A DNA stretch of 35,640 nt from a virus (lineage: Duplodnaviria; Heunggongvirae; Uroviricota; Caudoviricetes). The stretch covers positions 1 through 35,640 of the IMG/VR virus record IMGVR_UViG_2740892107_000010; one strand, 5' to 3'. The stretch's first letter is position 1; every line of letters starts with the position of its first letter. Below, one piece after another: positions 1,571-35,309 of the stretch. The position numbers were made by a program, and so were the translations under genes. Under the pieces are notes generated by a model. That model made no database searches. It was given only the letters and a program-made list of their open reading frames with translations, and had not been told where the DNA came from.

Positions 1571-1619
1571 TCGTGAAACCCCAGCGTTACAAGACCACCA
1601 TGCCCCCAGCGCTCCATGA

Positions 1620-5441: not shown

Positions 5442-5807
5442 ATGATTCTCGCCGACGACTTTCTTGAATACCTGCTCAACACAGAACGTGATCTTGCCGC
5501 TCGCGTGCGTGATCGTTATGACATGTACCTGAAATCCCTGCCTGTACCGCAGCTCGCTGACGGAAAGATTGTTATTGATGGTCGCTACATGATTGACAGC
5601 CACGAGGGAAATTACAGGCTTTACCGCATTGAAGGTGGCACCCCGTCCGTTATTGGCATTTACCAGCGCCCATCCTCTGCAATCGTCGATGTGATTGCCG
5701 ACAGCATCCGCATCACACATCGCCATGCCGACACAGAAGACACCGTGCTGGAAATTCAGTGGCTGGCTACAGTCTGCCGCGACACCCTGAATGGCATGAC
5801 GAAGTAA
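5442..5807 (+). CDS. Hypothetical protein immediately upstream of A
   Basis: 121-aa ORF with AGAGGA ribosome-binding site. Confidence 0.55.
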   Translation: MILADDFLEYLLNTERDLAARVRDRYDMYLKSLPVPQLADGKIVIDGRYMIDSHEGNYRLYRIEGGTPSVIGIYQRPSSAIVDVIADSIRITHRHADTEDTVLEIQWLATVCRDTLNGMTK

Positions 5808-5813
5808 ATCACT

Positions 5814-8697: not shown

Positions 8698-9657
8698 ATG
8701 AAAATTTGTATCGACGACGGCTCCACCAACATCAAGCTGGCATGGACTGAGAACGGCGAACGCCGCAACGCCATCAGCCCGAACAGCTTCAAGTCGGAAT
8801 GGTCTGCGCCGTTCGGTGGCACGCATCCCGCGAACTACATGCTTGATGGCGTGCGCTATGGCTTTGATCCGGTCAGCGATCGCTTTGTCCAGACGACTGA
8901 CACGCAATACCAGTACAGCGATGTGAATGTAATCGCCATTCATCACGCGCTGGTCAAATCAGGCATCACACCACAGGAAGTGGATGTGGTTGTCACCCTG
9001 CCACTGAGTGAGTATTTCGACACAAACGCACAGCCGGACATGGCCAACATCAACCGCAAAAAAGCGAACGTCATGCGCCCGGTGGAGTACCAGAACGGCG
9101 AAGCATTCACTATCCGTAACGTACGGGTTATGCCTGAATCCATTCCGGCTGGCTTTAAAGCACTGGCTGACATGAGTCCGTTTGAATCCCTGCTGATTGT
9201 GGATTTAGGCGGAACCACGCTGGATGTGGCAAAGGTTCAGGGACAACTGGCAGGTATCAGCCAGGTGTTTTGCGATCCACACGTAGGCGTTTCCCTGATG
9301 GCCGATGCCGTACTGTCGGTGATGGCCACTAACGGTATGCGTACCAGTCACCACATCGCCAATACCATTATCGAACATCGCCATGATGAAGCCTGGCTGC
9401 GCCAGCACATCCACAATGACGCGCATTACGCCAGCCTGATGGCGGTTATTCGTGAAAAGGAAGAAACACTGAAACAACGCGTGATCCGCGCGCTGGCGGG
9501 TTTTTCGGGTTACGGGCGGGTGATGGTTGTCGGTGGCGGGGCGGAGATTGTGGCACCCGCTATCCGCGAAGCCTGCGGAGTTAATGCGACTTTCATCGCG
9601 GACGGGGTGCCACAGTTTGCTCTGGTTAATGGGCTGTACGCAATGGACAAGGAGTAA
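8698..9657 (+). CDS. parM: ParM/StbA-like actin-family ATPase
   Basis: N-terminus MKICIDDGSTNIKLAW...ISPNSFKSEW...YQYSDVNVIAIHHALVKSGI closely resembles plasmid R1 ParM as I recall it (MLVFIDDGSTNIKLQW...). Confidence 0.8.
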   Translation: MKICIDDGSTNIKLAWTENGERRNAISPNSFKSEWSAPFGGTHPANYMLDGVRYGFDPVSDRFVQTTDTQYQYSDVNVIAIHHALVKSGITPQEVDVVVTLPLSEYFDTNAQPDMANINRKKANVMRPVEYQNGEAFTIRNVRVMPESIPAGFKALADMSPFESLLIVDLGGTTLDVAKVQGQLAGISQVFCDPHVGVSLMADAVLSVMATNGMRTSHHIANTIIEHRHDEAWLRQHIHNDAHYASLMAVIREKEETLKQRVIRALAGFSGYGRVMVVGGGAEIVAPAIREACGVNATFIADGVPQFALVNGLYAMDKE

Positions 9658-9660
9658 ACC

Positions 9661-9973
9661 AATGACGACACCAACCAGACGAATAAGTTTCTATCTGAAG
9701 CCTGCCGCCGTCAAGAACGAAGGCGAAGCATGCGCCTGGCTGGACAGCCTTACACCAGAAGCCCGTAAAAACGGCCAACGCGTGGCTTTTCTGGCTGGTC
9801 TGGCGCTTCTGAAAATGAATCCGGCAGAGGCTTACCGACTGGCAGCATGGGCTGACGATGAGGCGTTATCAGTGACACAAACCAGGACAGAACGCCCCCT
9901 GTCACAGCCAGTACCAACCGCACAGATAACCAGTCAGATGGCCGGAAATATCAGGGCATTATTTCCTGAATAA
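9661..9973 (+). CDS. parR: ParR-like adaptor protein
   Basis: 104 aa directly after parM; RISFYLKP...LDSLTPEARK...AFLAGLALLKMNP...ALFPE resembles R1 ParR as I recall it; AGGAG ribosome-binding site. Confidence 0.6.
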
Positions 9974-10036
9974 CACAACGTCAGGGCGAGTTCGCCCTGA
10001 TCTCCATCTCAGAACATAAACAAGAAGAGCGACTTA

Positions 10037-10420
10037 ATGAGCAAAATCAACTATCAGGCATTACGTGAACGTTATTCACCTGCACCAGTACCAAAATGCC
10101 CTATTTGCGGCGAAGAAATGTCAATTCAGCGAATATCTGGAGCACTGGTTGTTTATGGCTGCTCCGGTTATGGTGATGATGGAGATTTCAAAATTGGTCG
10201 AACTCTTGCCGACGAACATTATGAAAAATCACGCGTAACAGTGTTGGATGTCGGGGATCCTGAAGTATTGGCGCTACTTGATTGGCTGGAAACCAAAGAC
10301 AACCGAATCGCTGAACTGGAAAAAATCGCCACTGACTATGCACTTAAATTCCAGAAAGCACAGGACGCATTAAAGTACGCCGCTTTGCTGCATAGCAGGA
10401 CAGTGCAGCTACAAGACTAA
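10037..10420 (+). CDS. Hypothetical protein with N-terminal CxxC zinc-ribbon-like motif
   Basis: 127 aa; CPICGEE ... YGCSGYG; helical C-terminal half. Confidence 0.55.
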   Translation: MSKINYQALRERYSPAPVPKCPICGEEMSIQRISGALVVYGCSGYGDDGDFKIGRTLADEHYEKSRVTVLDVGDPEVLALLDWLETKDNRIAELEKIATDYALKFQKAQDALKYAALLHSRTVQLQD

Positions 10421-10510
10421 CTTAAAGCGGAAGATTAATACATGGTGAGTCGGGGTAATTTGTTTTTATCCCGACAAATAAACAAAAAAGTGGACTATCT
10501 CTGTAGTATC

Positions 10511-11042
10511 TTATTCAGCATCGTCTCGTGCAGTCTGTGCATACGTCACAACAACGCCCAATGCATTAGTTTTCTTTTCAACATAGATAATATTGTCATA
10601 TTCATAGTTACCATACGGATAGCAAATAAGAATATTTTTATGCAGATCGGGATCATCAACAAACGCTCCGGAACAGCTTCTTGAACTACCGGATGTATAC
10701 TCATACGGTGCAACATATGATGATGTTACTCCTGGTAAAAAATAAGTCACCATCATAAGAGGGATAATCAGGAATATCCCTGTAAGAATGCAAGAGCCAG
10801 CATAAACCTTCAGGTATTCCGACAGTCCTTTCCAGCCACTTTGCTTCACTACCCCCCCTCTTCACCAGAAACAAGGAGAAGAAAAAGGACATACCCATAC
10901 TACACAAGATGTAATAATTGGATATACGCGAATTAAGATATGTAATCCTGTAGATATCTGCCCTCCACCAGTAAAAGAGGAAAATAATCCCTAGCACTGA
11001 AACAGTCATGCAAATCAAATAAGGATATGAATCTTTCTTCAT
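10511..11042 (-). CDS. AT-rich membrane protein gene, split into two overlapping frames at a C7/G7 tract
   Basis: ORF 10701-11042 (two hydrophobic segments) and ORF 10511-10849 (one hydrophobic segment) overlap in different frames; removing one base from the C7 run at 10852-10858 fuses them into about 175 aa. Confidence 0.5.
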
Positions 11043-11519
11043 GTCTTGCGCTCATTAAAATTTCCCTGCTACGAACAAATTTACCATCCGTTTTTTGCGC
11101 AGAAAACAGCACGATGCACACTGCACGATAGTGCACAAATTTGCACAATTTTTTTGAACGACTTTTTACCCTTCCGGCCAGCATGGCGGCTGGATCCGTC
11201 AAGGATCCGTGCGTGCACAAAAAAACGCGCTTTTTCTGCGCGCAGGTGACGGGGGAACAGCCCGCGTTTCAGGGGGTAAATAGCATTCCCTGAACGATGT
11301 CGCAGCGACACAACAGAATGGCTGTATTTCTCACACTGAGCGTGAAAAAGACGTGAGGGCTTTTGATTTGATGGGGTGACAGACAAGGCCGTCAAAATCG
11401 CACTGAGGCGGCAAGAACATGCAGTCGACGCGGTGGGATTGCGTAAGAGCCTGACCGTCGATGATGGCGATAAGCTGGAAGACGTCGTGAAATTATCTGA
11501 TTGATACAGGAGCTGGAGA

Positions 11520-11572: not shown

Positions 11573-12619
11573 TCAGGATGTGGGCTGAGTGTCCAGCAGT
11601 GCGTAAGGGTTAAAGCGGATCACCTCTTCGCCAAGCCAGTCATTGATATGCTTCATGGCCTCCATTACGGGCATCAGCTCGTTAATTGCGTAAACCCGCG
11701 CTGCCTTCTCCACATCACCAAACGCACTTTTTTCGCCCGGCATCGCCCCCATCAGTTGCGGCGGAACGCGGTGCGCAGCCAGCACATCATCACGGGATGC
11801 CGCCTTAACATTCATGAACTCATCTTTTGCGGTGATCTGCTGGAACGGCAAAATTTGCACCCCCTCTTTGCCCCCGTTGGGCGCGTGAATGAGCACGTTT
11901 TTAAACGCACCACCACCACGTGCACCCTGTAGCGTTTCCTTCAGGGAGTCCATGCTTTCGCGGTTTACCTGCGCTGCACCGATGTAGATGATGCACCCGG
12001 CGTGGGATCCGTTGTCGTAATACAGTTTTCTGAACATGTCCGCCGAATGAGACAGGCTGGCCGAGAGTAATGCGCCGAGATATTCCGGCATGCCGTAGAT
12101 TTCCTGGTTAATGTCAGGATTCATCAGGTGGCACACTTTGCCAGAGCGAAACTGAAACGCGTCCTTGCCATCCTGCACATACCACCATGATTCAAGATCG
12201 CTTCCGCGTCGCATGTATTTCGCCAGGGCGTGCCGTAATTTAAGCGGTTCGCCGAGCATATTGCTTCGAAGCTCAAGGAATGCGTTACCGAACACAAACC
12301 AGTCCAGCGCCAGCGCCGAGAAATCCTGCCGGGAAAGCAGCGGATGCGGAATATAGCAGCCGAGCAATACATTACGCTTAAAGTAAAGCGCAGACTGATG
12401 CCAGGACGTTTGCCGGGCAGCTCTTGCCAGACCGTACCAGTCCACCGGGGTTTCATACCACCGCCCGTTATCAGCACAGTACATATTGTCCAGCAGGTCA
12501 TGCCCGGTCAGGCGGTAAGGACCATCAAATGTGAATGCACTGAGCGACGATTCTTTCCTGAGCGCATCAGCGAGATCAATGCGTGAACTCATGCGCACTT
12601 TTTTATTTTTTCTGCTCAT
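11573..12619 (-). CDS. Q: Portal protein (P2 gpQ family)
   Basis: 348 aa, size and position match P2 Q; start overlaps the terminase stop (ATGA). Confidence 0.85.
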   Translation of the reverse strand: MSRKNKKVRMSSRIDLADALRKESSLSAFTFDGPYRLTGHDLLDNMYCADNGRWYETPVDWYGLARAARQTSWHQSALYFKRNVLLGCYIPHPLLSRQDFSALALDWFVFGNAFLELRSNMLGEPLKLRHALAKYMRRGSDLESWWYVQDGKDAFQFRSGKVCHLMNPDINQEIYGMPEYLGALLSASLSHSADMFRKLYYDNGSHAGCIIYIGAAQVNRESMDSLKETLQGARGGGAFKNVLIHAPNGGKEGVQILPFQQITAKDEFMNVKAASRDDVLAAHRVPPQLMGAMPGEKSAFGDVEKAARVYAINELMPVMEAMKHINDWLGEEVIRFNPYALLDTQPTS

Positions 12620-14370
12620 CAGAACTCCATAACCGTGAAACGCTCGTTTTCTCCTTCGCCGCCAATTGGTTCGTTAATGACAGCAAGCATGGTTGCCCAC
12701 GCAAGGTCGCCGTGGCTGATCCCCCTCGCGCGGTCCGTTTCGTAAGTGATAAAGCCACCCGGTGTTTTCACCTTACGCACGGCGTTAAAGGCCGCGACCA
12801 GCTCGCGTTCGGCGCGATCGTATTCCCACCGCCCGGCACGCATTATTTGCAGCATTTTCAGTACCAGCGACCGTTTTGATGACAGCGTGAAGGTGTACGG
12901 AATAGCAGCAGGGAAAAACCGTTTCACTATCTGATAAACAGCCTCCCCGTTCCCGCCCGTCACATCAATGCCGATGTGTTCCACGTTGTAGCGACACGTG
13001 AACTCTTCAATGACTCTGGCCTGTTCTTCAAACTCCAGCCCCTGAACGCGTCGCGTCTCCACCGTTCGAAAACGGCCACCAGGAACAGCCGGAGGAACCA
13101 CCACGGACACAGCGCCGCTGTCGCCGTTTCCACTGCTGCCGTTTGCGTCATAACCAATCCATACCGGACGATTCCCCATCGGGCGGGGAGCAAAAGGTTT
13201 CCAGTCTTTCCAGTCGTCGTATCCGTCAACACCGCAGCCAATCAGGATATTCAGGTTAAATGCCGATTCCCCTTCGCGGACAAACTCACACATATAGAGA
13301 TTGCGGAACTCGTCTTCGGTGTTTTCATCACGAATTTCGTCGATATCGGTGTGTTTCCAGCCGTGATTAACCACATCTTCCAGCGTGACAATTTGCCGCC
13401 ACGTCCGGTCAGGGCAGATAAGCCCGTTATGCAGCGTTTTCCAGTCCACAGAAAAACGCTGGCGTTTATGCGTGGCCTTTTTCTCGTTCCAGCGGTCGCC
13501 GTTCCAGTAGGCGTATGCCTCGTGCGTTTCGGTGGATGGCGTGGAGAAGTAGGTGCGCCGCAGTCCGCTGAGGGTTGCCATAGCGCCAGCCACCTTGCGC
13601 AGTTCAGCAAAGCGGCTGACCCAGAAAAATTCATCAAAATAAAAATTGCCAGTATAGGACTGTGCCGACGCAGCAGAAGTGCCGAGGAAATGCAGCTCTG
13701 CGCCGTTGGAGAGGATGATTTTATCACCCCCTTTCAGCTCCACATCAACTTCAGCCGCGGCCTTCTGAATAATGCTTTTAAACTGGAACGCCTGACGACG
13801 CGACGCAGACAAAAAAATCTGGTTACGCTGGTAAGGTTGCGCCACATCGTCACGCAGCGCCATCAACAGTGCTTCCTGTGCAAAATACCAGGTCGCCCCA
13901 ATCTGTCGGGATTTCAGGATCATCCTGTTACGTATCCCGGCTTCCCTGCAAAGGGTCAGGGCGTCAAACCAGCCCCGCTGATGCCACTCCAGCCTGCTGA
14001 TGATTTTTTCCCGCAGTGCGGCAATCTGTTCCGGCGTGAAATGATTTTTAAGTTTTTTCGCCCGGCTTTTCTTTCCTGTGGCCGTCGCATCCGGCTGGTC
14101 ATTATGCAGTTTTTTAAGCTGCCGGGTCAGCAGGTCTATTTCCTTGAAGTCACCACCTGTTTTATTCTGTTTTTCAGTAAGCTGGATGAGGCGCGCATCG
14201 ATGGACTGCGTGACACGCTGCACGGGTGGCGTTTCATCCCACTGATCGCGTTTTTTCCACGCATAAATCGTGTTCGGGTTTATTCCCATCAGACGTGATA
14301 TTTCTGCGGGCGGATAACCCTGCCAGTAAAGTTGTCGCGCACGCTGGCGCACAAAAGCGTCCTGAATCAT
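12619..14370 (-). CDS. P: Terminase large subunit (P2 gpP family)
   Basis: 583 aa; divergent from O across a late promoter region, as in P2. Confidence 0.9.
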   Translation of the reverse strand: MIQDAFVRQRARQLYWQGYPPAEISRLMGINPNTIYAWKKRDQWDETPPVQRVTQSIDARLIQLTEKQNKTGGDFKEIDLLTRQLKKLHNDQPDATATGKKSRAKKLKNHFTPEQIAALREKIISRLEWHQRGWFDALTLCREAGIRNRMILKSRQIGATWYFAQEALLMALRDDVAQPYQRNQIFLSASRRQAFQFKSIIQKAAAEVDVELKGGDKIILSNGAELHFLGTSAASAQSYTGNFYFDEFFWVSRFAELRKVAGAMATLSGLRRTYFSTPSTETHEAYAYWNGDRWNEKKATHKRQRFSVDWKTLHNGLICPDRTWRQIVTLEDVVNHGWKHTDIDEIRDENTEDEFRNLYMCEFVREGESAFNLNILIGCGVDGYDDWKDWKPFAPRPMGNRPVWIGYDANGSSGNGDSGAVSVVVPPAVPGGRFRTVETRRVQGLEFEEQARVIEEFTCRYNVEHIGIDVTGGNGEAVYQIVKRFFPAAIPYTFTLSSKRSLVLKMLQIMRAGRWEYDRAERELVAAFNAVRKVKTPGGFITYETDRARGISHGDLAWATMLAVINEPIGGEGENERFTVMEF

Positions 14371-14523
14371 TGCTCCCCCTGAGTAATTACAGGAAGATTA
14401 CCCGCGCGCGAAACCGTTCTCCTTAACCCCCTGTTCTGGCTGTTTTCTTACAACAAAAGCCCTTTGTATCAGCCTGTTACGCTTTGCCATCATGACTGAA
14501 GAACCAGTCAGAGGGGCAAAACT

Positions 14524-18793: not shown

Positions 18794-19197
18794 AGCTCTG
18801 GCCCACGCTGGGTGTCGCTTTCCTTCTGATTGCCGCATGGGGAACATCCATGCGTCTGTCGTGGTCGCTGGGTCGGGAGAACACCAGAAACGAAGCGCAG
18901 GCCAGCACCCTGAAAAGTACCGTCGACACACTGAATATCATCAGCGCCGGAGTACAGGATATGCAGCAGGTGCTGGCACAACTCCGCGCGGAAAATCAGC
19001 AACGCAATCAGGACGGAGAGGCCAGACGTGAACAGCTACGCAACGATATTGCAAAAGATGAATGCGCCCACGCTTTGCCTGACGTTCGTTTTACTGACAG
19101 GTTGCGCAGGCACGCAGAACGCGCCACGGCCAGCACCGTCAGTCCGGCTTATACCGCAGACGCTGACCATACCGGTAACGCCGCCTCCCTTCCCTGA
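18790..19197 (+). CDS. Rz-like inner-membrane spanin
   Basis: ATG overlapping endolysin stop; N-terminal helix LWPTLGVAFLLIAAWG then coiled-coil-like region. Confidence 0.7.
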   Translation: MKLWPTLGVAFLLIAAWGTSMRLSWSLGRENTRNEAQASTLKSTVDTLNIISAGVQDMQQVLAQLRAENQQRNQDGEARREQLRNDIAKDECAHALPDVRFTDRLRRHAERATASTVSPAYTADADHTGNAASLP

Positions 19198-22784: not shown

Positions 22785-25403
22785 ATGAGCACGAAATTTA
22801 AAACCGTTATCACTACTGCCGGAGCCGCAAAGCTGGCTGCCGCCACTGTCCCCGGCGGGAAAAAAGTAAACCTGTCTGCAATGGCCGTGGGTGACGGTAA
22901 TGGCAAATTACCGGTGCCGGATGCCGGTCAGACGAAACTGGTGCATGAGGTCTGGCGTCACGCTCTGAATAAAGTCAGTGTGGATAATAAGAATAAAAAC
23001 TATATTGTGGCTGAACTGGTTGTTCCGCCAGAAGTGGGCGGCTTCTGGATGCGTGAGCTTGGTCTGTATGACGATGCCGGAACACTGATTGCGGTATCCA
23101 ACATGGCAGAAAGCTATAAGCCAGAACTGGCTGAAGGCTCCGGACGTGCGCAGACCTGCCGCATGGTTATTATTCTCAGCAACGTGGCGTCCGTTGAGCT
23201 GAGTATTGATGCCAGCACAGTGATGGCGACGCAGGATTACGTCGATGACAAAATCGCAGAGCATGAGCAGTCCCGCCGCCATCCTGACGCCACGCTGACA
23301 GAAAAAGGTTTTACTCAGTTAAGCAGTGCAACAAACAGCACCAGTGAAAAGCTGGCGGCAACGCCAAAAGCGGTCAAGGCTGCGAATGACAACGCAAATT
23401 CACGTCTGGCGAAAAATCAGAACGGTGCAGATATCCAGGATAAATCAGCTTTTCTGGACAATGTTGGCGTTACCAGCCTGACGTTTATGAAAAACAATGG
23501 CGAAATGCCGCTTGATGCTGATCTGAATACGTTTGGTCCTGTTAAGGCTTATTCAGGTATCTGGTCTAAAGCAACATCCACCAACGCAACACTGGAGAAA
23601 AATTTCCCGGAAGATAATGCTGTCGGTGTGCTTGAGGTTTTTGCTGCCGGCAATTTTGCAGGTACGCAACGCTTTACCACGAGAGACGGCAATGTATACA
23701 TGCGTAAACTCGCCAATAAGTGGAATGGCACTGATGGTCCGTGGGGCGTATGGCGTCACACTCAATCTGCTACCCGCCCTTTGAGTACGACTATAGACCT
23801 GAATACGCTTGGAGCCGCCGAGCATCTTGGTTTATGGCGTAACAGTAGCTCAGCTATAGCTTCATATGAACGCAATTATCCAGAGGAAGGCGGCTTTGCT
23901 CAGGGGATGCTTGAGATCCTCGAAGGCGGAAATTATGGAAGAACGCAACGTTATACCACTCGCCGTGGAAATATGTATGTCCGCTGTCTTGCGGCAAGCT
24001 GGGATGCATCAAATCCGCAGTGGGAACCGTGGTTAAGAGTCGGTCATCAGTCAGAGAGTCGTTATTACGAAGGTGATTTAAATGTTCTAACCGACCCCGG
24101 TATTTACAGTGTTACAGGAAAGGCAACAAACGGTCCGATGCTGGACACCGTTGGCGCGACACTACTTGGGATACTGGAAGTAATCAGACGTTTTGATGGT
24201 GTGTCTGTCTGGCAGCGTTACACAACCACAGGGAAATCAGAAACCACACAGGGACGCACTTTTGAGCGCGTCTACGCCGGGAGCAAATGGACCGAATGGC
24301 GAGAAGTATATAACTCCTTTTCGTTGCCTCTGAATCTGGGCATCGGTGGCGCAGTGGCAAAACTATCCAGTCTGGACTGGCAGACCTACGATTTTGTGCC
24401 GGGCAGTCTGATAACCGTGCGGCTTGATAACATGACCAACATTCCCGACGGTATGGACTGGGGCGTCATTGATGGCAACCTGATAAACATCGCAGTTGGT
24501 CCGAGTGATGATTCCGGTACGGGGCGCTCAATGCATGTATGGCGCAGCACTGTAAGTAAAGCGAACTACCGCTTTTTTATGGTGCGTATTTCAGGAAATC
24601 CGGGAAGCCGCACGATTACAGCAAGACGAGTACCAATCATTGACGAAGCCCAGACATGGGGCGCGAAACAGACATTCAGTGCTGGCCTTTCTGGTGAGCT
24701 GTCAGGCAATGCTGCTACAGCAACAAAGCTGAAAACGGCAAGGACAATTAACGGCGTAAAATTTGACGGCTCAGCAAATATTGAAGCGTTTCCGCCAGGT
24801 GTTCCGCTGCCGTGGCCATCAGATACACCACCTGCAGGCTATGCAATTATGCAGGGGCAGACGTTTGATAAGGCAGCATATCCGAAACTGGCTGTTGCCT
24901 ATCCTTCAGGTGTTATTCCTGATATGCGCGGCTGGACAATCAAGGGCAAACCCGCCAGTGGGCGTGCCGTATTGTCACAGGAGCAGGACGGGATTAAATC
25001 GCATACTCACAGCGCCAGTGCGTCAAATACGGACTTAGGAACGAAAACGACCAGTTCATTTGATTACGGGACAAAAACAGTCAGTACGTTTAACCACGGC
25101 ACAAAATCAACCAATACTTCTGGCAATCATACACATACCGTCGGTTTTGCTGTGAGCGTGCAATCAGGCGGTGCAGATTATGGTGTTCCGCGAAGTGATA
25201 AAGGTGCTACGACTACAAGTTCATCAGGCAATCATGCACATACAGTCAACATTGGAGCACATAACCATACTGTTGGTATTGGTGCACATTCACACACGGT
25301 TGCTATTGGCTCACACGGGCACTCTATTACCGTTAATGCTACAGGTAATACAGAAAATACCGTAAAAAACATCGCATTTAACTATATTGTGAGGCTTGCA
25401 TAA
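22785..25403 (+). CDS. H: Tail fiber protein (P2 gpH family)
   Basis: 872 aa; conserved fiber N-terminus; three internal repeated segments; C-terminus rich in H-x-H repeats. Confidence 0.9.
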
Positions 25404-25978
25404 TGGCTTTCAGAATGAGTGCAGAAGCACAAACTATCCGCGTATTTAATTTACTTGATGGAACCAATGAATTTATTGGGGAAAGTGAAGCGTATATTCC
25501 ACCGTATACAGGTCTGCCAGCAAACAGTACAGATATTGCACCACCTGATATTCCTGCTGGTTATGCAGCCGTTTTCAATGCAGATGAAATGAAATGGGAA
25601 CTGATGGAAGACCATCGCGGAAAGACCGTCTATGAAACGAAAACAGGAGCAGCCATTTATATTTCTGAACTTGGCGCATTACCTCCAGACGTGACAGCCA
25701 TTTCCCCGGAGGGGGATTATCAGAAATGGAACGGAAATGCGTGGGTGAATGATGAGAATGCAGAGCGTGATGCACTTGTCAGAGCCGCCGAATCTCAGAA
25801 GAGAGAACAAATCGCTTATGCGAGTAAGATCATTGCTACTTTGCAGGACGCTGTTGATTTAGATATAGCGACAGAAGACGAAAAGATAAACTTGACACGC
25901 TGGAAGAAGTACCGTGTATTGGTGAATCGTATTCAACCAGAAAATACCACCGATATTGATTGGCCAGAGCAACCATGA
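25403..25978 (+). CDS. G: Tail fiber assembly chaperone (P2 gpG family)
   Basis: 191 aa immediately after H. Confidence 0.8.
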
Positions 25979-25982
25979 AAAA

Positions 25983-26006
25983 AGGCGCTTACTGCGCCTT
26001 TTTTTG
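25983..26006. terminator. Bidirectional rho-independent terminator
   Basis: Stem aggcgc / gcgcct with loop ttact, A-run before and T7 after; overlaps the last codons of the convergent acetyltransferase gene. Confidence 0.65.
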
Positions 26007-26531
26007 TCTTATAACAGGAGTTATTTCGTTTATATATATTGAGTTGGAAGGAATAGATTTTGTTACCAGAGCATGAGCACCTATCGTAACGTTATCACCG
26101 ATATTAACTTGCCCACCAAGGATAGATGAATTGCAACCTATATCAACATTATCTCCAATAGTAATCATTGCCTCATTGGAAGGGGTTCTTAGACCAATAG
26201 TAACACCTTGCTTTATATGTAGATTTCTCCCTATCACACAGTTTTCTGTAATAACAATACCTGATAAGTGAGCAATATCTAAGCCTGGCCCTATACTCAC
26301 TGTTAAAGGAATCTCAACATTATAATCGCGATGAAGGTTTGCTCCGATGCGTTTGCCCACCCGGCGCATGAACCCTCCTCTGCTGTATAGATAGCTGGCC
26401 ACTCGCCACCAAAACATAAAGTGTTTTCGCCTATTGCGTCTGGTGCGAGTTAAAGCTTTTCTCCATGAAAACTCATGGTTTCCGCCTATAACTTCTATTT
26501 TTATACACTCCTTTAATGTTTTTATATCCAT
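25989..26531 (-). CDS. Hexapeptide-repeat (left-handed beta-helix) acetyltransferase, AT-rich cargo gene
   Basis: 180 aa with repeated [LIV]-G-x4 hexads (IGDNVDIG, VNIGDNVTIG, VIGRNLHIKQGVTIG); AT-rich; convergent with the tail-fiber operon. Confidence 0.75.
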   Translation of the reverse strand: MDIKTLKECIKIEVIGGNHEFSWRKALTRTRRNRRKHFMFWWRVASYLYSRGGFMRRVGKRIGANLHRDYNVEIPLTVSIGPGLDIAHLSGIVITENCVIGRNLHIKQGVTIGLRTPSNEAMITIGDNVDIGCNSSILGGQVNIGDNVTIGAHALVTKSIPSNSIYINEITPVIRQKKAQ

Positions 26532-26712
26532 GAATTTAATCTCTGCATTATCACTTACAATGTAATGGGGTGTTAATCTGACTGGGTGTGTAATGAACTC
26601 TCAAGAAATTATATTGTGGCTACTGGATGTATTCAATAAGATGGAACCAACATGTAATGTGCTTGAATGGTCCGATATGTTACGGACCATTTATCACAAG
26701 AAATTAAACTCT

Positions 26713-27207
26713 TTAAAATAAACTATGAACTGAGTTAGCCACGCTATTTAAAGACGAGGTTACCTTATCTTTGAAGCCAGTCAGCATATCGCTGAACGAT
26801 GAGGATTGCAGGCGCTCCCGCAAATCCTCATCACAGCGGTCAAGGGTCAGTGAAAACTCTATCTTTTTTGCCTTGCCGTAGCGATCAAACTCGGAGCGGG
26901 TCGTACTTGTGTCAGTCAGAACATACATGCCGTAAATCTGCCCGACGCCATCAATCAGAGGCCAGGGGCGCCCTGTATACGCCTGCGTGGTCAGCAGCGA
27001 CAGGGACACTTCGCCACCTGTGATTTCAGGATAAAGCACACCAGAAAGAACGACGCGATCATCACCTGCACCGATATACTGCCAGCTTGCTGAACGGTTA
27101 ACGCGCTCATTTTTCACATGCCGCCAGCTTTTGTTTTGCTGTAACTGCTGATGCGGCAATGTGCGCAGCTCAAAAACAAACATGCCGTAGATCATCATCA
27201 TGACCAT
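26713..27207 (-). CDS. U: Tail protein U (P2 gpU family)
   Basis: 164 aa immediately downstream of the tape-measure gene. Confidence 0.75.
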   Translation of the reverse strand: MVMMMIYGMFVFELRTLPHQQLQQNKSWRHVKNERVNRSASWQYIGAGDDRVVLSGVLYPEITGGEVSLSLLTTQAYTGRPWPLIDGVGQIYGMYVLTDTSTTRSEFDRYGKAKKIEFSLTLDRCDEDLRERLQSSSFSDMLTGFKDKVTSSLNSVANSVHSLF

Positions 27208-27213
27208 GACTCC

Positions 27214-30030
27214 TCAATCTTTATCGTAAAAACTGCCACGCCCGGCACGGGTGCGCCGTTCTATTTCTGCCCTGACCATTTCACCGACCAGTTTCGCCAG
27301 TTCGCGGGGATTCTGCGTAACAACGTTATGCAGATGAACATGAATTTCACCGCCAAATCCGGAGGCAACAGGCTCCCGGTTACGGGAAGTTGCAGGAACT
27401 GATGCCACTGGCGATCGTATGGCCTCCTCCACTGGGCGGGAGCTGGCCGTAACAACAGGGACCAGCGCCGGAGGCAGCGGAGCCGGGACCACGGGTGTGA
27501 TCTTAATTGCGGGGGCAGGCTTACTGACCTGCGCAATCTTCCGCTCCTGCCACTCCCCACGAACAGCAAGTGCGCGGGGCAGGTTCTTAAAGACAATATC
27601 GCCAGGGCCAATGCGTTTTTTCGTCTCATCAACCAGCTTACCTGTGTTATCAGCAATCTTGCTGAGTCTGCGTAGCGTACCGGTATTGCTGTCTGTGAGC
27701 GGTTTGTTGTCTTTGGGTTTATCGCCTCCGGTGCCATTGCCATTTTCCGCAGACTTCGGCGGATTGATTTTCGCAATGTCTCCCTGAAACAGAGCAACCT
27801 TATCCTGAAGAATGGCCGCACGCTGTGCGTCTTCGATTTTCTTTCTCGCCCTTTCCGCTTCATCCGGAAGCACACCGAGTTTTTCAAGTATCCACGCCAG
27901 CGTATCCAGCAACATTTTTGCAGGCGTCAGAACAAGCTGTAACGCGCCACCAAGAACGTTACCGAATACCTCGCCAGCACTGGCACATTTATCCAGCGTT
28001 TCCTTGCTGGACTCCATCGGTGACAACAGCGATTTAAACCAGTTAAACACCTGGCTGATCCCGCTTCCGATTGCGTCAAAAACAGGGCCAAACCGTTCAA
28101 AGGTTTCGCGCAACGGGGTCAGCCTTTCCATAATTCCGCTGAACACCCCGGCAAAAAATGCCCTGATGGGATCCCAATATTTCCAGATAAGAATGGCTGC
28201 TCCGGCAAGCGCAGCCACGATAAGACCAACCGGACTGAACAGCGCCCCGATAGCACCTCCCAGCAAAGAAACGGAACCCGTCACCATTCCCCATAGTGCT
28301 GGCAGGAGCCTGACAGCATTCATTGATCCGGTCAGGAGGGAAAAAACAAGACGCAGTTTTGCCAGTGGGCCAGCAAGCACACCAAGAGCAAGCGACAACG
28401 AGCCTACGGTTGCAGTCACTGCCAGCAGCGCACCGCCTGCAATCAGTAGCTGGCGCGTCAGTACAGGATGGGCCTGCGCCAGTGCCGTCACCTTTGAGAC
28501 CACCCGCGTTAGCCACTGCGTGACAGAACGCAGCGGACCGTCAACCAGATCACTGATGCGAATACGAAGACCTTCCCATGCGCTGTCGAGATTTTTCAGG
28601 TCGCCATCAAGGTTGTCGGCCATAACCTTTGCCGTGCGTTCAGCCTCACCGCGTGCGCCCTCAAGTTCTTTTCTCAGTTTGGGTAAGGAACCGTCACCCG
28701 CCGCATCAACGAGTGCCATAAACGATGTGAAAGCCTCTTCCCCGGCGATGTCCTTAAAGAAGGATACCCGGTCAACTTCCCCGTATTTGCGGGTAGCTTT
28801 ATAAAGGTCAGCCAGCAGATCTTCCATCGGGCGCATTTTGCCCCCGGCATCCGAGACGGACACGCCCAGCTCTTTCAGAGCTTCTGCCGCCGCCTTTGGC
28901 GGTGATGCCAGACGAGCCAGGCTGGCACGCATTGCCGTCCCGGCATCACTCCCCCTGATGCCCATATTCGCCAGTACGCCCGCCATCGCTGCGGCCTGCT
29001 CCAGCGATATTCCCAGCTTACCCGCCACCGGACCTGCATATTTCATGGTTTCGCCCAGTGCGCGAAGGTCAGTGTTGGTACGGGTAAACGCTGCGGTGAG
29101 TGTGTCACCGACCCGATCCATCTGGTCAGCAGAAAGGCCGAACTGCGTCAGGATATTTGAGCCAATATCTGCCGTCTCGCCGAGCTCCATACCGCCAGCC
29201 GTTGCCATGCTCAGCACGCCCGGAAGCGCAGCCTGAATGGCCTGCGGTGTGAAGCCAGCCATTGCAAGAAATGCCTGTCCACTGGCGGCATCGCCTGCAG
29301 TGAACTGAGTTTCAGAGCCAAGTTTTAACGCCTGCTCACGCAGCGCCTTAAACTGCGGGCTGTTTTTGTCGATTCGCGTCAGTGCCTGAACGCGGGACAT
29401 CTCTTTCCCGAACCCGATCGCAGGCTGCAAAAAACGCCCGGCAGCATAGCCGCCCGCCGCTGCCGCACCAATTGCCAGCGCACCACCTGTTTTCAGTTTT
29501 CCCGCAGTTTCCTGCGCGCGTGAATACCGCTCACGCGCCCGCGTTACACGCGCAAGCGCCTGCCGTTCGCGTTCAAGCTGGTTGTTGTACTGTTCGGTGC
29601 GTCTGATGGCCTGCTGGATGGTGTTATCGCTGCCTGTCAGGGAAATGCCGTGGCGTTTCAGCTCTCCGCCAAGCTCCCGCATTTTCTGAATTTCCCGTGC
29701 GCGCGATTCATTCAGGCGTTCAAGCCGGGTGCTTAACTGCTGCATCAGCTTTTGTTGTTTTTCGCTGAGCACTGTACCCGTGCGTTGTAACTGATTAAGG
29801 GCGTTAAGCTGGCGTCGTGCTTTCAATATGCCAGCATCCGCTTTACTGACAGCGTCACGGGCGCGCTCAAATGAACGCGCCTGACGCTCGAGATTTTTGA
29901 TCGCCCCCTGCGTTCGCTGGATGGAGTCACCAAACTGCCCCATCAGGCGGCGGGCGTTTTCGGCAGGCCGGGTCAGCCTGTCAACGGCGCTGAAAGCGAC
30001 CCGGATATCAAGAGTCTTCATTGTCTGCAT
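27214..30030 (-). CDS. T: Tail tape measure protein (P2 gpT family)
   Basis: About 940 aa, alanine/glycine-rich with hydrophobic central stretches; start uncertain among GTG 30057, ATG 30030, ATG 30021. Confidence 0.85.
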   Translation of the reverse strand: MQTMKTLDIRVAFSAVDRLTRPAENARRLMGQFGDSIQRTQGAIKNLERQARSFERARDAVSKADAGILKARRQLNALNQLQRTGTVLSEKQQKLMQQLSTRLERLNESRAREIQKMRELGGELKRHGISLTGSDNTIQQAIRRTEQYNNQLERERQALARVTRARERYSRAQETAGKLKTGGALAIGAAAAGGYAAGRFLQPAIGFGKEMSRVQALTRIDKNSPQFKALREQALKLGSETQFTAGDAASGQAFLAMAGFTPQAIQAALPGVLSMATAGGMELGETADIGSNILTQFGLSADQMDRVGDTLTAAFTRTNTDLRALGETMKYAGPVAGKLGISLEQAAAMAGVLANMGIRGSDAGTAMRASLARLASPPKAAAEALKELGVSVSDAGGKMRPMEDLLADLYKATRKYGEVDRVSFFKDIAGEEAFTSFMALVDAAGDGSLPKLRKELEGARGEAERTAKVMADNLDGDLKNLDSAWEGLRIRISDLVDGPLRSVTQWLTRVVSKVTALAQAHPVLTRQLLIAGGALLAVTATVGSLSLALGVLAGPLAKLRLVFSLLTGSMNAVRLLPALWGMVTGSVSLLGGAIGALFSPVGLIVAALAGAAILIWKYWDPIRAFFAGVFSGIMERLTPLRETFERFGPVFDAIGSGISQVFNWFKSLLSPMESSKETLDKCASAGEVFGNVLGGALQLVLTPAKMLLDTLAWILEKLGVLPDEAERARKKIEDAQRAAILQDKVALFQGDIAKINPPKSAENGNGTGGDKPKDNKPLTDSNTGTLRRLSKIADNTGKLVDETKKRIGPGDIVFKNLPRALAVRGEWQERKIAQVSKPAPAIKITPVVPAPLPPALVPVVTASSRPVEEAIRSPVASVPATSRNREPVASGFGGEIHVHLHNVVTQNPRELAKLVGEMVRAEIERRTRAGRGSFYDKD

Positions 30031-30537
30031 TCCCGCTGCGAAGTGCCGCCCGCTCACGCCAGCTAACCACTTCGCCGGGCGTCATCATGAAGATTTCGGC
30101 GGGCGACCAGTTAAAAATAACGGCAATATCTGCCACAAAGTCTTCTATGTGCTCAAAGCACACAACCGTGATCAGGCTTCCGTCGCCTGTTCGTTCTTCC
30201 CGCCAGAGTCCGCACCGCTCAAAAAATTTACGGCAACCACACATAACTGAATAAAGTCACGGGATGCCATTTTTTTGATCGTCACTTCATCCAGTCGCGG
30301 TGATGTCACGCGTGACAGCAGCGTAAACATGGATTCCGCTTTCAGATTCAGCACATCAGACAGCGACAAATCTCGCAGAGATCCAGCCTGCTCAATAGCC
30401 CCGGAGATCTCCACATACGTGATTTTTTCGCCGCCTCGCTCAATTGGTTGGGTAAGTTTTACGCCACGCTCACTGGTTTCTTTCACAGTGTCAGCAACTA
30501 CCGTGTTTTCGGTATCGATGTTTTTCGTCTCTTTCAT
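30008..30537 (-). CDS. Frameshift-extended tail chaperone E+E' (-1 programmed frameshift)
   Basis: The -1 frame is open from the slippery site (plus 30221-30227) to a stop at 30008; same arrangement as P2 E/E+E'. Confidence 0.65.
30172..30537 (-). CDS. E: Tail assembly chaperone E (P2 gpE family)
   Basis: 121 aa between the tube and tape-measure genes; contains in-frame slippery heptamer T-TTT-TTG. Confidence 0.75.
   Translation of the reverse strand: MKETKNIDTENTVVADTVKETSERGVKLTQPIERGGEKITYVEISGAIEQAGSLRDLSLSDVLNLKAESMFTLLSRVTSPRLDEVTIKKMASRDFIQLCVVAVNFLSGADSGGKNEQATEA
30221..30227 (-). other. Programmed -1 ribosomal frameshift slippery heptamer T_TTT_TTG
   Basis: Minus-strand sequence gta-aaT-TTT-TTG-agc phased as X-XXY-YYZ in the E frame. 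Confidence 0.65.
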
Positions 30538-30591
30538 CAGGAAACTCCTTTCAGTCAGAGGCGACGCACTGCGCCGCCTGCATATTACTTA

Positions 30592-31104
30592 TCAGCCAAG
30601 CCCAAGCGCGGAACGGATGCGATCGGGCACAATGTCCTTGCCGTCCTTCCGGTAAATGAAGTTCAGCAGGTCAATCTCCCACAACGGGCGATCGTTAACG
30701 CTCAGCTTGTAGTAGGTGTTTTTAATGGCGTAAGTGTGTGATGTGGCTTCGCCCTGTTTGGCTTCCCCCATATCAATTTCCGTCACACGTCCGCGCATTT
30801 CGACTTCATACAGGTCGCTTTCTGCATCGGTGTAGTATTCACCCGCAAAACGCAGCAGCGTGCCGTCAATCGTGCCGCCATACTTAAGGAACAGCTCACG
30901 AACTGCGCCCCCCATGACAAAGCTCGCATCAAGCGCGGAGTCGTCCAGGCCGAGATCAATACTTACCGCCCCCATCATGCCACCACCCCGGTAGCTGTCG
31001 GTTTTGCGCGTCAGCTTAGGCAGAGTGACGGACGTCACCTTACCCACTTCGTTTTCGCCATCCACAAACAGCGTAAAAAAGCGAAGATGTTTTGGCACAG
31101 CCAT
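30592..31104 (-). CDS. FII: Tail tube protein (P2 gpFII family)
   Basis: 170 aa directly after the sheath gene. Confidence 0.85.
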   Translation of the reverse strand: MAVPKHLRFFTLFVDGENEVGKVTSVTLPKLTRKTDSYRGGGMMGAVSIDLGLDDSALDASFVMGGAVRELFLKYGGTIDGTLLRFAGEYYTDAESDLYEVEMRGRVTEIDMGEAKQGEATSHTYAIKNTYYKLSVNDRPLWEIDLLNFIYRKDGKDIVPDRIRSALGLG

Positions 31105-32288
31105 CAGGCACCTCCCAGCACCGCAAATGCGGGTTCAAAGTATTCATCAGTAAACGTCTGGTAAAGCTCCATGTCTTCCAGTGGCGGAACGGGCGTATAT
31201 TTGTAGCGAATACGCACACGCCCCTGACGTAAATCCGTGGTGCTGTTATCCACCACGTCATACCAGCACTCCGCGCCAATCAGTTTCCCGGCAGTAACCA
31301 GTGAATCCAGTTTTGCCCTGACGGCACTGATAACATCCTTCACGTTCGCGGGTGTTAATGGACTGTCGATGGTTTCAAACTGCGCTTCCGCAATCGTGTC
31401 AGCCAGTACCTGTGCGGTACGGGTATACACCTCAAAGATGTAGGCGTTCGTTTCCGGTGTGCGGTTGCCCCAGAAACGGAACCCGTTGCGACGAATAATG
31501 GTCGTGATTTCTTTGTTGTTGAGGCTGTTGGCATCGCTGTCTTCGGCCTGTAACGACCAGAACACATGCCTGGACATCCCCAGCACATTTTTAACCGGAA
31601 CGTTGGACAGCGATTTGTGCCAGCCCTGCTCATGGTCAATGTACGCACGAAGGCCGCACGCATAGGCAGGCGCGGGGAACGTTTCGTTTTCGCCACTTTT
31701 CGGGTTGTAGGCGATGAAGTCCGGCCACAAGAGCATCACTTCACGTTCGTTGAATTTCTGGCGGTAGGTAATCGCTTCAGCCATCGTGTTACAGCCGTGA
31801 CATGAGGCATACACAAACGCGCGCAGTTTACCCGCTATCACGCACAGGGATTTTATTACCGCCTCCGTGTCCAGCTCCGGCGCGGCCAGAATACGCGGAC
31901 GGTATCCGATGCTTTCATCCTGCTCTGCAACAAGCAGCGCATACATCCCCGTATAGCTGCCGTCATCCTCAGAACCACCGATAACCAGTTGATCCTGCGT
32001 CTTTCCGTCTTCTTCTTTGTGTTCAGCCACGCGAACGACGATCACCTTTGTGCTCACCTGGTCTGCGATGGCCTTAAGCGCACGATAAAGCGTCCCCGTT
32101 GTCCCGCATTTTCCCAGCACGTCATTGACGCGGGTCAGCAGTGTAGGCTTGTTCAGCGGGAACAGCTTCGCGTCCGCATCATCCGCCGTTGCCACGATAC
32201 CGATAACGCTGGAATCAACATCGTTAATCGCTGTTACCAGGTCGGTATTTTCCGTAACACGGGCACCATGAAAACGAGTTTCACTCAT
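31104..32288 (-). CDS. FI: Tail sheath protein (P2 gpFI family)
   Basis: 394 aa, size and neighbours match P2 FI. Confidence 0.9.
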   Translation of the reverse strand: MSETRFHGARVTENTDLVTAINDVDSSVIGIVATADDADAKLFPLNKPTLLTRVNDVLGKCGTTGTLYRALKAIADQVSTKVIVVRVAEHKEEDGKTQDQLVIGGSEDDGSYTGMYALLVAEQDESIGYRPRILAAPELDTEAVIKSLCVIAGKLRAFVYASCHGCNTMAEAITYRQKFNEREVMLLWPDFIAYNPKSGENETFPAPAYACGLRAYIDHEQGWHKSLSNVPVKNVLGMSRHVFWSLQAEDSDANSLNNKEITTIIRRNGFRFWGNRTPETNAYIFEVYTRTAQVLADTIAEAQFETIDSPLTPANVKDVISAVRAKLDSLVTAGKLIGAECWYDVVDNSTTDLRQGRVRIRYKYTPVPPLEDMELYQTFTDEYFEPAFAVLGGA

Positions 32289-32445
32289 AGCTTCAGCCCC
32301 TTGTATCCGTTAAATGATTCGGCAACAATCATCACCCACCACGCGCGTAATCTCACCCCTGCGCCGTTCTCCCGCCACGGCGACAACAAAAAGCAGTAAC
32401 CCCCTCCGCACGCACATGCGACCATGCTGCACAGGGAGGGAGCAG

Positions 32446-33555
32446 ATGACCGACACCACCATGCAATTGCTCAGTCAGAGCACAGACCCCGTAAAAATGC
32501 CGGATTTTGATATTCTCGCGGAGGGTAAAACGCTGTCCGGCGTGGCAGAGCGCCTGATGAGCCTGTCGCTGACCGACAACCGGGGATTTGAGGCAGACCA
32601 GCTCACCATCACGCTGGATGATGCGGATGGTCAGTTGCAGCTACCGCCACGGGGCGCGCGCCTGACGGTTCTCATTGGCTGGAAAGGCGAACCGCTGACA
32701 GAAAAAGGGTCTTACATTGTTGATGAAATCGCACACGAAGGACCGCCAGACAGGCTGACTGTTTCAGCCAGAAGCGCAGATTTTCGGGATGAATTTAACG
32801 TTAAACGTGAAGTGTCCTGGCATGATGTGACCGTTGAGCGCGTGGTATCCGCCATCGCTCATCGGTATGGTCTGAAACCGCAAATCAGCGAAATGCTGAT
32901 GGATATTGAAATCGACCACGCCGACCAGACCGAAGAAAGCGACATGTCCTTCCTTACGCGCATGGCGGAAATGCTGGGCGCAATCACTACGGTAAAAAGC
33001 GGTAATCTGTTATTCATCATGCCAGGTGGTGGCGTGAACGCACAGGGCCAGCCGTTGCCCTCGTTCGCCATTACACGCAGCAGCGGCGATCGCCATCAGT
33101 TCCGTATTGCTGACCGCGAGGCGTATACGGGGGTACGCGCCTACTGGCTTGATCTTAATTACGGGAAAAAGAAAAAAGTCAGCGTGAAACGCCGTAAACC
33201 GCCAAAACCCAAAAAGGAGAAAAGCAGCAGCCGTGAAGGTGATTATATGGAAGGCGCGGAAGGCAATGTGTTTGTGTTACGCAAGACTTATCAGAACGAG
33301 CAGGCAGCAAGACGCGCAGCGGCGGCAAAGTGGCAGCAACTACAACGCGGAGCCGCATCATTCTCCATCACGCTGGCGCGTGGACGTGCAGAACTCTATC
33401 CCGAAATGCATGGCACGGTGACAGGCTTCAAAAGTGACATCGACAATCAGGACTGGATTATTGCAAAAGCCGAGCACACCATTGATAACAGCGGCTTTAC
33501 CACGCAGCTTGAGCTTGAGGCAAAAATCCCGGAATGGATAGCAGAAACAGCGTGA
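32446..33555 (+). CDS. D: Tail protein D (P2 late control gene D family)
   Basis: About 369 aa from ATG 32446 with GGGAGGG ribosome-binding site; the longer upstream ORF start at 32314 looks like an artefact. Confidence 0.8.
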   Translation: MTDTTMQLLSQSTDPVKMPDFDILAEGKTLSGVAERLMSLSLTDNRGFEADQLTITLDDADGQLQLPPRGARLTVLIGWKGEPLTEKGSYIVDEIAHEGPPDRLTVSARSADFRDEFNVKREVSWHDVTVERVVSAIAHRYGLKPQISEMLMDIEIDHADQTEESDMSFLTRMAEMLGAITTVKSGNLLFIMPGGGVNAQGQPLPSFAITRSSGDRHQFRIADREAYTGVRAYWLDLNYGKKKKVSVKRRKPPKPKKEKSSSREGDYMEGAEGNVFVLRKTYQNEQAARRAAAAKWQQLQRGAASFSITLARGRAELYPEMHGTVTGFKSDIDNQDWIIAKAEHTIDNSGFTTQLELEAKIPEWIAETA

Positions 33556-33646
33556 ATGTCTTAAATGTATTAGTTCAGATATGTACTAGCAATAAACATA
33601 GTTAGAAAGGCCGCTAACGCGGCCATATTAATTAAAACTCCAGTTA

Positions 33647-34816
33647 CTAATATTGAGAAAGATAATCAGCGACTCCATCTGCAGGGTTTCGCCCACCAGT
33701 ATAAATTGTGCCTAATTCTTGAGGTGTAACATATGTTGTAGGCCAAATGGCCATATTTTTAAAATAGTTATCTATTTTTATTCTTTGAAGTTCTTTAAAG
33801 AGATAATCTTCTAAGTCATTTCTTTTTAGACAGTTAACATAATAAGCAGCCGCACTTGCTACTATATCTACAATTTGTAATTGAGGATACTCTTGTGATG
33901 AATGGAATGTCAAAGAACGAGCTTTAATTGGCAATTCAAATTTTCTTCGATCATAACCATATGCCTCCGTAATTTTTGATATATCCATAAATTTATCAAA
34001 AATATCTTTCTTCTCTGTAATAGCTTTGGAATCGTCATGCTTAATATAAAAACCATTAGGGTATAATTTACCCCATTCTACACAGTGTCTAAAGAGGCTT
34101 GGTATAGATGGATCTAATGTGCTTTTCTCAACACCTTCCAATATATCATCAATATCGCTTCTGGTAATACTAATTCTGTTTATTATATCTGTGAATATCT
34201 TATCACTTGAGCATATCTTTAACTCATCAATTACCCTGTAAAATTCATCAATTGACTCAGTCGATTGGCTTCTGATCATATTCATAAAACACTGATACAT
34301 TACCTCTGTTTTTTCCTCCCCACAGAAAGCAGGGAAACAGAAATAGTAAACATTAGACAGAGCTAGATTCTGTCCATTTATATAAAGATCTATTCCTCTA
34401 TTAGAGCACCACGTCTCGATCAAAATATCAACAATCTTTGCTGTTAGCATGTATTTTTTATCGACCAAGTATATTTTAACATTCTCTTCATTGACATATT
34501 TGCTTTCAAGAAGCCTAATGATGCCATCCTGACCAGATTTTCTACGTCTAAGAGTTTTAAAGTGGGCTTCTGTTGGAGACTTGCTTCCGGTTAGTTCTAA
34601 TGCCTTAAGCGCATCCTGTTTACTAATACTACTTGAACTTAAGGTAAAAACAGGTTGCAATGGATCGAGTAAATTTCCGCCAGTATTACCTGATTCATCA
34701 AAAAATATATCAGGCTTTATATACAACATTTTATTTATCTTTGCCGCTAAGTTTCTTTTTTTCTCATTTTCTCGCTTAATTTTATTATCTCGCCTACGTT
34801 GACTATTCTTTCCCAT
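33647..34816 (-). CDS. AT-rich 389-aa cargo protein of unknown function (DUF3800-like N-terminal motif, tentative)
   Basis: Low GC; GAGG ribosome-binding site 5 nt upstream of ATG 34816; N-terminal IFFDESGNTG motif that I recall as typical of the DUF3800 family; inserted between D and ogr on the opposite strand. Confidence 0.7.
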   Translation of the reverse strand: MGKNSQRRRDNKIKRENEKKRNLAAKINKMLYIKPDIFFDESGNTGGNLLDPLQPVFTLSSSSISKQDALKALELTGSKSPTEAHFKTLRRRKSGQDGIIRLLESKYVNEENVKIYLVDKKYMLTAKIVDILIETWCSNRGIDLYINGQNLALSNVYYFCFPAFCGEEKTEVMYQCFMNMIRSQSTESIDEFYRVIDELKICSSDKIFTDIINRISITRSDIDDILEGVEKSTLDPSIPSLFRHCVEWGKLYPNGFYIKHDDSKAITEKKDIFDKFMDISKITEAYGYDRRKFELPIKARSLTFHSSQEYPQLQIVDIVASAAAYYVNCLKRNDLEDYLFKELQRIKIDNYFKNMAIWPTTYVTPQELGTIYTGGRNPADGVADYLSQY

Positions 34817-35048
34817 AAATACCTCACAATCTGAATTAGATATCCCAATTTAACGCATTAATAACATAATGTTATGATATCACACAATCAAAATAACGTG
34901 CTGATTTTAATGTATCAGGTTTGACTAGCTATTCTTTGATAAGCGAATAATAAGAATGTCAGCCCCTCAACTCAAAGCGGTTTAGTCAGTTGGAATCGGA
35001 GCTAGTAGAACTTAAAATAACAGAAGCACCACGTTAAGGGAGGTCTCT

Positions 35049-35309
35049 ATGTTCCGTTGTCCGCTTTGTGGCGCATCTGCCCGTATCCGCACAAGTCGTC
35101 CGGAAAATGATTCAAACACCGTGCGGCAAAAGTATTACCAGTGTAACAACCTGGAATGCGGCGTATGCTTCTCAACACTGGAAGCCTTCCATAAATTCAC
35201 ATCAAAACACGCCTCCGCCGTTCACTCTTCAGAAGGTATCCCGTGGCATGAGCTGCCAGCTTCACACAGGGGAAACAATCAGATGAGTTTGCCTTTACCT
35301 CAGAACTAA
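35049..35309 (+). CDS. ogr: Ogr/Delta-family zinc-finger late transcription activator
   Basis: 86 aa; MFRCPLCG...QCNNLEC gives a C-x2-C-x22-C-x4-C finger like P2 Ogr; GGGAGG ribosome-binding site. Confidence 0.85.
   Translation: MFRCPLCGASARIRTSRPENDSNTVRQKYYQCNNLECGVCFSTLEAFHKFTSKHASAVHSSEGIPWHELPASHRGNNQMSLPLPQN

Follow-up and report, generated by a model that had tools for sequence, protein, structure and literature searches.

How has a P2-family prophage come to carry the genes for its tail sheath, tube, chaperone and tape measure backwards, and does such an order mean damage, a switch, or simply another normal state of the family? The stretch of DNA analysed here, called the window below, is 35,640 nucleotides (35.6 kb) long, and the ORF listing and profile matches identify it as a P2-family prophage in its prophage gene order. 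The minus strand carries U, T, E/E', FII and FI (26713-32288), H, G and D are plus-strand genes, and D diverges from FI across 157 bp; these points, already made by a first-pass annotation from the letters alone, are borne out by the ORFs and by Pfam and PHROG matches. That annotation had also described the P2 genes FI to D as running in one direction with H and G within a single late operon. The common direction is right, since the P2 and 186 records both show FI to D co-directional with V to G, and the block in the window is indeed inverted relative to both phages. The single operon is not, because in P2 the genes H and G (V operon, promoter pV) and the genes FI to D (F operon, promoter pF) are transcribed separately from promoters of their own. 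The canonical order of P2 and 186, with FI-FII-E-T-U-D and V-W-J-I-H-G on one strand, is not found in the window.

Gene Content of the Prophage

Genes were identified from the ORF listing together with Pfam and PHROG matches, and identities to P2 proteins were obtained by comparison (Table 1). FI, FII, T, gpU and gpD are all present and intact, score above the Pfam gathering thresholds and are 33-49% identical to the P2 proteins, as a contractile tail module of the P2-like type (Peduoviridae). The E/E' pair also appears to be of this type: a -1 slippery heptamer, T TTT TTG, lies in the E frame upstream of T, the P2 record annotates the homologous -1 frameshift at E/E', and E' would be produced in the same way here. 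P2 (Peduovirus) and 186 (Eganvirus) have the same gene set, FI, FII, E/E' with T TTT TTG, T, U, D and ogr, and the proteins of the window are 26-84% identical to theirs, mostly 32-49%. What differs is the arrangement. In P2 and 186, FI to D form a single operon co-directional with V to G, in which U abuts or overlaps D, whereas in the window FI to U are inverted and D stands apart, oriented away from FI. The plus-strand late genes end with H and G, which converge on the inverted block, and between G and U there is a minus-strand ORF of 180 aa for an acetyltransferase that the first-pass annotation had missed.

Table 1. Features of the 35,640-nucleotide window, with positions counted from its first letter.
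Feature	Position	Strand	Remarks
Integrase	596-1720	-	Early region
Replication gene A	5814-8621	+	Early region
Cargo region	8698-11400		Between A and Q
Portal Q	11573-12619	-	Head gene
Terminase P	12619-14370	-	Head gene
P-O divergent gap	14371-14523		153 bp
Second exact motif copy	14433-14456	-	In the P-O gap; comparator
O, N, M, L	after P		Head genes
Lysis genes	after the head genes	+
Two-mismatch motif copy	18859-18882	+	Inside Rz-like spanin gene
R, S, V, W, J, I	before H	+	Tail/baseplate genes
Tail fibre H	22785-25403	+	N-terminus 84% identical to P2 H
Tail fibre assembly G	25403-25978	+	PF02413
Symmetrical hairpin	25975-26007		AAAAAAGGCGC-TTACT-GCGCCTTTTTTT; A-run on one side, T-run on the other
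Hexapeptide O-acetyltransferase	25989-26531	-	180 aa; Pfam Hexapep
gpU	26713-27207	-	Last gene of inverted block; PF06995, E = 1e-38; 46% to P2 U
Tape measure T	27214-30057 (maximal ORF)	-	PF10145; likely start ATG at 30021, from length comparison with annotated P88
E' extension	30008-30244	-	phrog_1756
Slippery heptamer T TTT TTG	30226-30220	-	Upstream of T
Tail chaperone E	30172-30537	-	phrog_103
Tail tube FII	30592-31104	-	PF04985, E = 7e-47
Tail sheath FI	31104-32288	-	First gene of inverted block; PF04984, PF17482, PF22671
FI-D divergent gap	32289-32445		157 bp; proposed bidirectional late-promoter region
Candidate Ogr-type activator site	32366-32389	-	TTGTTGT-N12-AGAAC; in the FI-D gap
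gpD, baseplate hub/late control D	32446-33555	+	PF05954; 49% to P2 D over 375 residues
DUF3800 gene, low GC	33647-34816	-	PF12686
ogr, Ogr/Delta-type zinc-finger late activator	35049-35309	+	PF04606, E = 5e-14

The Same Order in Related Phages

Is the arrangement peculiar to this prophage? When positions 25000-34000 were searched by megablast against phage genomes, Escherichia phage P88 (Xuanwuvirus, Peduoviridae; NC_026014) was 96% identical over 26728-33555, and about ten further relatives followed at 94-96%, among them PhiR44_2, Citrobacter phiSM, P884B11, 500465-2, 520873, 503458 and Chuche. The sheath is 99% identical to that of the P88 group and only 46% identical to P2 FI. Over U-T-E-FII-FI-D, the P88 group and the window share 94-96% of their nucleotides, the strands are the same, and the divergent gap between FI and D is the same; both P88 and PhiR44_2 are annotated with U, T, E', E, FII and FI on one strand and with V to G and D on the other. 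With the comparison confined to 25000-34000, 76% of that stretch is covered at 96% identity by P88, and the ICTV guideline for a genus is about 70% nucleotide identity over the whole genome. Over the region compared, the prophage is a member of the P88-like group. The core of the P88 attP site, GCCACCCGAAGGTG, is absent from the window, which indicates that the integration site differs from that of P88 or falls outside the window.

The same layout extends to more distant phages. In Novemvirus phiT5282H, Reginaelenavirus 3LV2017, and Senquatrovirus SEN4 and SEN5, from Enterobacter, Klebsiella and Salmonella salamae, FI to U are likewise inverted, D points away from FI, and the tail-fibre genes run towards U, with sheaths that are just 56-75% identical to that of the window. 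The layout of the window, with FI to U inverted, D diverging across about 155 bp and fibre genes converging on U, is identical in P88, PhiR44_2, phiT5282H, SEN5, 3LV2017 and 23 species loci.

It is to be asked, then, whether a phage with this order can live. One explanation of the locus is that the rearrangement disabled the prophage, leaving D an orphan and the element cryptic, and D does indeed lack the operon context that it has in P2. P88, which has the identical arrangement, is induced by mitomycin C and is plaque-forming; its burst size is about 65, and electron microscopy shows a contractile tail (PMC5285337). For phiSM of Citrobacter rodentium, likewise of identical arrangement, the description is that of a fully functional and spontaneously active temperate phage (PMC6456863). 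As phages of the same layout are viable and the tail genes of the window are all intact ORFs with full-length family matches, a crippled prophage is very improbable, and the conserved activator-type site upstream of D, described below, also speaks against it. The first-pass annotation had implied an unusual rearrangement, perhaps through misassembly or crippling, and had named an observation that would overturn this, namely functional relatives that carry the same orientation as their norm; P88 and phiSM are such relatives, and this part of its reading falls. The inverted block is the fixed and normal gene order of a large, working group of P2-like phages, P88 and its relatives. The order in itself is already known, since characterised phages that have it are published with annotated genomes, and literature searches found no paper that explicitly discusses the inversion.

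Distribution of the Inversion Among Species and Genomes

How far does the inverted order reach, and how many times has it arisen? A survey was made of 80 species-representative loci with a sheath homologue, in which V, W, J, I, FI, FII, T, U and D were located by tblastn. At the 23 loci with a sheath of 58% identity or more to FI of the window, FI to U always lie opposite to D, and V-W-J-I, complete in 19 of these, are there also on the strand opposite to FI to U. Sheaths of 51% identity or less were found at 57 loci; D was located in 51 of them, and in every one of these it is co-directional and directly follows U. Such a clean split by identity suggests one old inversion, fixed in a lineage, and the inversion so marks a deep clade of Peduoviridae. 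The hosts of the 23 inverted loci are Salmonella, Citrobacter, Edwardsiella, Enterobacter, Kosakonia, Mixta, Pantoea, Symbiopectobacterium, Erwinia, Izhakiella, Trabulsiella, Klebsiella and Pectobacterium, with one record labelled Vagococcus. This last, a 226-kb contig of Vagococcus sp. WN89Y (NZ_JBQPOM010000071.1), is assigned to a Gram-positive genus and carries a tail block whose proteins are 96% identical to those of the window; the assembly is likely to be contaminated or mislabelled.

The same survey, together with E. coli genomes, bears on the suspicion that the block was simply placed in the wrong orientation in the source assembly. A 1.2-kb probe across the FI-D junction, scored as contiguous at 80% coverage or more, had some match in 1385 of 5426 complete E. 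coli genomes, and in 1356 of these the junction was unbroken, at 95-99% identity. These counts exclude misassembly, and as the inverted order also recurs in independently sequenced phages of four genera and in the 23 species-level loci, the chance that remains for an artefact is negligible.

Could the block instead be a programmed invertible segment that flips the tail genes in the manner of Gin, Cin or Hin systems? The thought is not far-fetched, since in P88 an invertible tail-fibre cassette, together with a gene for a DNA invertase, adjoins the U end of the block. In the window, a search of 25300-33700 for inverted repeats gave only pairs at chance level: the best were 14-30 nt long with 73-93% complementarity and misplaced, the longest (30 nt at 73%) lay away from the block ends, and none brackets 26713-32288. 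An invertase ORF flanking the block was not seen either, the acetyltransferase being the sole ORF of at least 80 aa between G and U. Moreover, one orientation only occurs in the 23 clade loci and in the E. coli genomes examined, and the flipped state would part FI from its promoter. The absence of flanking repeats and the rejection of an invertible switch, both put forward in the first-pass annotation, hold up on these grounds, and a switch is hardly conceivable.

It follows that P2 and 186 are not a template for every P2-like phage. The inverted block is standard in a large Enterobacterales branch of Peduoviridae, comprising at least four genera and present in about a quarter of complete E. 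coli genomes, and for annotators and for checks of prophage integrity the inverted order should not count as damage or misassembly.

A Candidate Late-Promoter Site in the FI-D Gap

If FI to U have been turned around and D has been left behind, from where are they transcribed? The FI-D gap contains TTGTTGT-N12-AGAAC, a candidate site for an Ogr-type activator, with 97 nt from its TGT to the downstream FI ATG. The motif became visible only when the P-O gap was compared directly with the FI-D gap. It has exactly two matches in the 35.6-kb window, one in each of these divergent gaps, and none in 100 shuffles, a statistic that is partly circular as the pattern was taken from the two sites themselves. 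The P-O gap (153 bp) and the FI-D gap (157 bp) align beyond the core as well, with a common CGCGCG element on the P or FI side.

The site of the window reads TGT-N12-AGA, one base off the textbook TGT-N12-ACA, and an Ogr homologue is encoded in the window. The strict textbook form has 9 matches in the window against 8.5 expected, with none in the P-O or FI-D gap, and upstream of FI it was found in 3 of 56 loci of the P2 order and is absent from P2 and 186 themselves. As it misses even these two phages, the textbook consensus is too strict, and position together with the GTTGT half-site was used in its place. In the experimentally mapped pF site of P2 and pJ site of 186, GTTGT stands at -91 and -90, respectively, counted from the start of the sheath gene, so that in both phages an activator site containing GTTGT precedes the sheath ATG by about 90 nt, as in the window. 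Within the clade, 20 of 22 loci keep TGT-N12-A[GC]A after a T-run at -87 to -97 relative to the FI ATG, even where the flanking sequence has diverged, and a similar element is found at the same place in most enterobacterial loci of the P2 order.

Besides these two exact copies, a copy with two mismatches (TCGTGGTCGCTGGGTCGGGAGAAC) lies inside the Rz-like spanin gene, with a spacer closely like that of the FI-D site of a Salmonella locus (L005); it might serve as an internal late promoter or be no more than a chance occurrence, and owing to its place within the spanin gene it was not counted as a promoter. R, S and V overlap without a gap, and a separate pV promoter of the P2 style is not evident.

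Origin and Working of the Arrangement

How, then, did the block come to lie backwards? One way is module replacement, in which a foreign FI-to-U tail module was recombined into the prophage and happened to enter backwards. The sheaths of the inverted clade do form a distinct class, at least 56% identical to one another and at most 51% identical to those outside, as a replacement might leave. The genes around the block tell otherwise. The inverted genes are 46% (FI), 42% (FII), 32% (E), 33% (T) and 46% (U) identical to their P2 counterparts, and the late genes that were not inverted are mostly 36-49% identical to theirs: D 49%, V 46%, W 44%, Q 47%, P 44% and N 41%. The last six (41-49%) are thus as distant from P2 as the inverted FI, FII and U (42-46%), and since inverted and non-inverted genes have diverged from P2 to a like degree, an inversion in place fits better than a foreign module inserted backwards. 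In addition, D co-varies with FI across the clade in the species survey, and the spacing between the pF site and FI is the same as in P2 and 186. With the co-variation, the like distances and the kept spacing taken together, the whole virion module appears to have diverged as one, and replacement is unlikely, if somewhat less so than a crippled prophage.

The explanation that fits best overall, and that is held here with high confidence, is that the prophage is a P88-like (Xuanwuvirus-type) member of the P2 family in which pF and FI-FII-E/E'-T-U were inverted once, long ago, and the inverted state became fixed. The sequences compared point to a single old inversion in the lineage. One breakpoint would lie between U and D, and the other upstream of pF, beside the variable slot that follows G. 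The motif common to the gaps and its position upstream of the sheath, like that in P2 and 186, suggest that pF was carried along with the block, and FI to U are probably still transcribed from pF, now towards G. The transcript of H and G and the opposing transcript from the side of U and the acetyltransferase probably both end at the hairpin at 25975-26007. Its predicted fold has a free energy of -18 kcal/mol (z = -6.1), its ends carry an A-run and a T-run, respectively, and it is a probable terminator for both directions, even though a simple terminator scan flagged nothing at the G/U convergence. What set off the inversion is a more speculative matter: the invertase locus that P88 has at the U-side breakpoint might have caused it.

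And what became of D? In P2 and 186, one annotated activator (Ogr/B) site serves both divergent operons P and O, while the sheath operon has its own. In the window, D is probably read divergently from the far side of the same Ogr-type site that serves FI, as P and O are in P2 and 186; we infer that the motif in the FI-D gap would bind the Ogr homologue and drive both genes. The inversion would then have rewired the late regulon, since D came to lie behind the pF site and a promoter that had worked one way would now, like pP/pO, work in both directions from a single Ogr-dependent site, as the second of its kind. We lean towards this reading by a narrow measure. The two ATG codons lie 88 nt (FI) and 70 nt (D) from the centre of the site at about 32376.5, and with the spacing known from P2 (about 55 nt) transcripts are predicted to start near 32321 on the minus strand and 32432 on the plus strand. 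With that spacing of 55 nt from the centre, the leader of D would be just about 14 nt long, which counts against a shared site. If the reading is true, D has gained a late transcription unit of its own, and the locus is a natural example of a promoter dependent on an upstream activator that was recruited by a gene stranded through rearrangement. The regulatory point, that D seems to have gained a promoter through the common pF activator site, is mildly interesting, and this shared-site divergent promoter for D, as we propose it, would be the sole modestly new idea to come from the locus.

Accessory Genes and Variable Slots

The slot between G and U differs among close relatives: it holds an invertible tail-fibre cassette with an invertase in P88, nothing in PhiR44_2, and the acetyltransferase in the window. 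With such changing contents, the slot behaves as a cargo hotspot like Z/fun in P2. In P88 it is at 5802-7950, by the U end of the block, that the alternative tail-fibre cassette and the DNA invertase are found. The acetyltransferase of the window is CysE/WcaB/EpsC-like, with NCBIfam matches all below the cut-off, and its upstream region (26532-26712) has sigma-70-like promoter sites of its own at 26636-26608 and 26576-26547. It is a candidate lysogenic-conversion gene, which might for example acetylate a surface polysaccharide. Megablast of 25500-26727 gave no match in the complete E. coli genomes searched; the host may be a species other than E. coli, or the cargo may be a rare one. By blastn, neither 25989-26727 nor 33556-34970 matched anything in the loci compared in that search.

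The DUF3800 gene between D and ogr was not seen at this position in P88, PhiR44_2 or the species loci compared in the blastn search. It lies in an island of 34% GC, on the strand opposite to its two neighbours, and its product of 389 aa matches PF12686 and phrog_12991 (E = 7e-187), a family of unknown function. PADLOC gave no match for the acetyltransferase, for the DUF3800 protein or for the ORFs between A and Q. The cargo region between A and Q corresponds to the position of old/tin in P2 and contains an ORF of 319 aa with weak similarity to ParM/actin-like proteins (NCBIfam, below the cut-off), as well as several small ORFs in a stretch of 41% GC.
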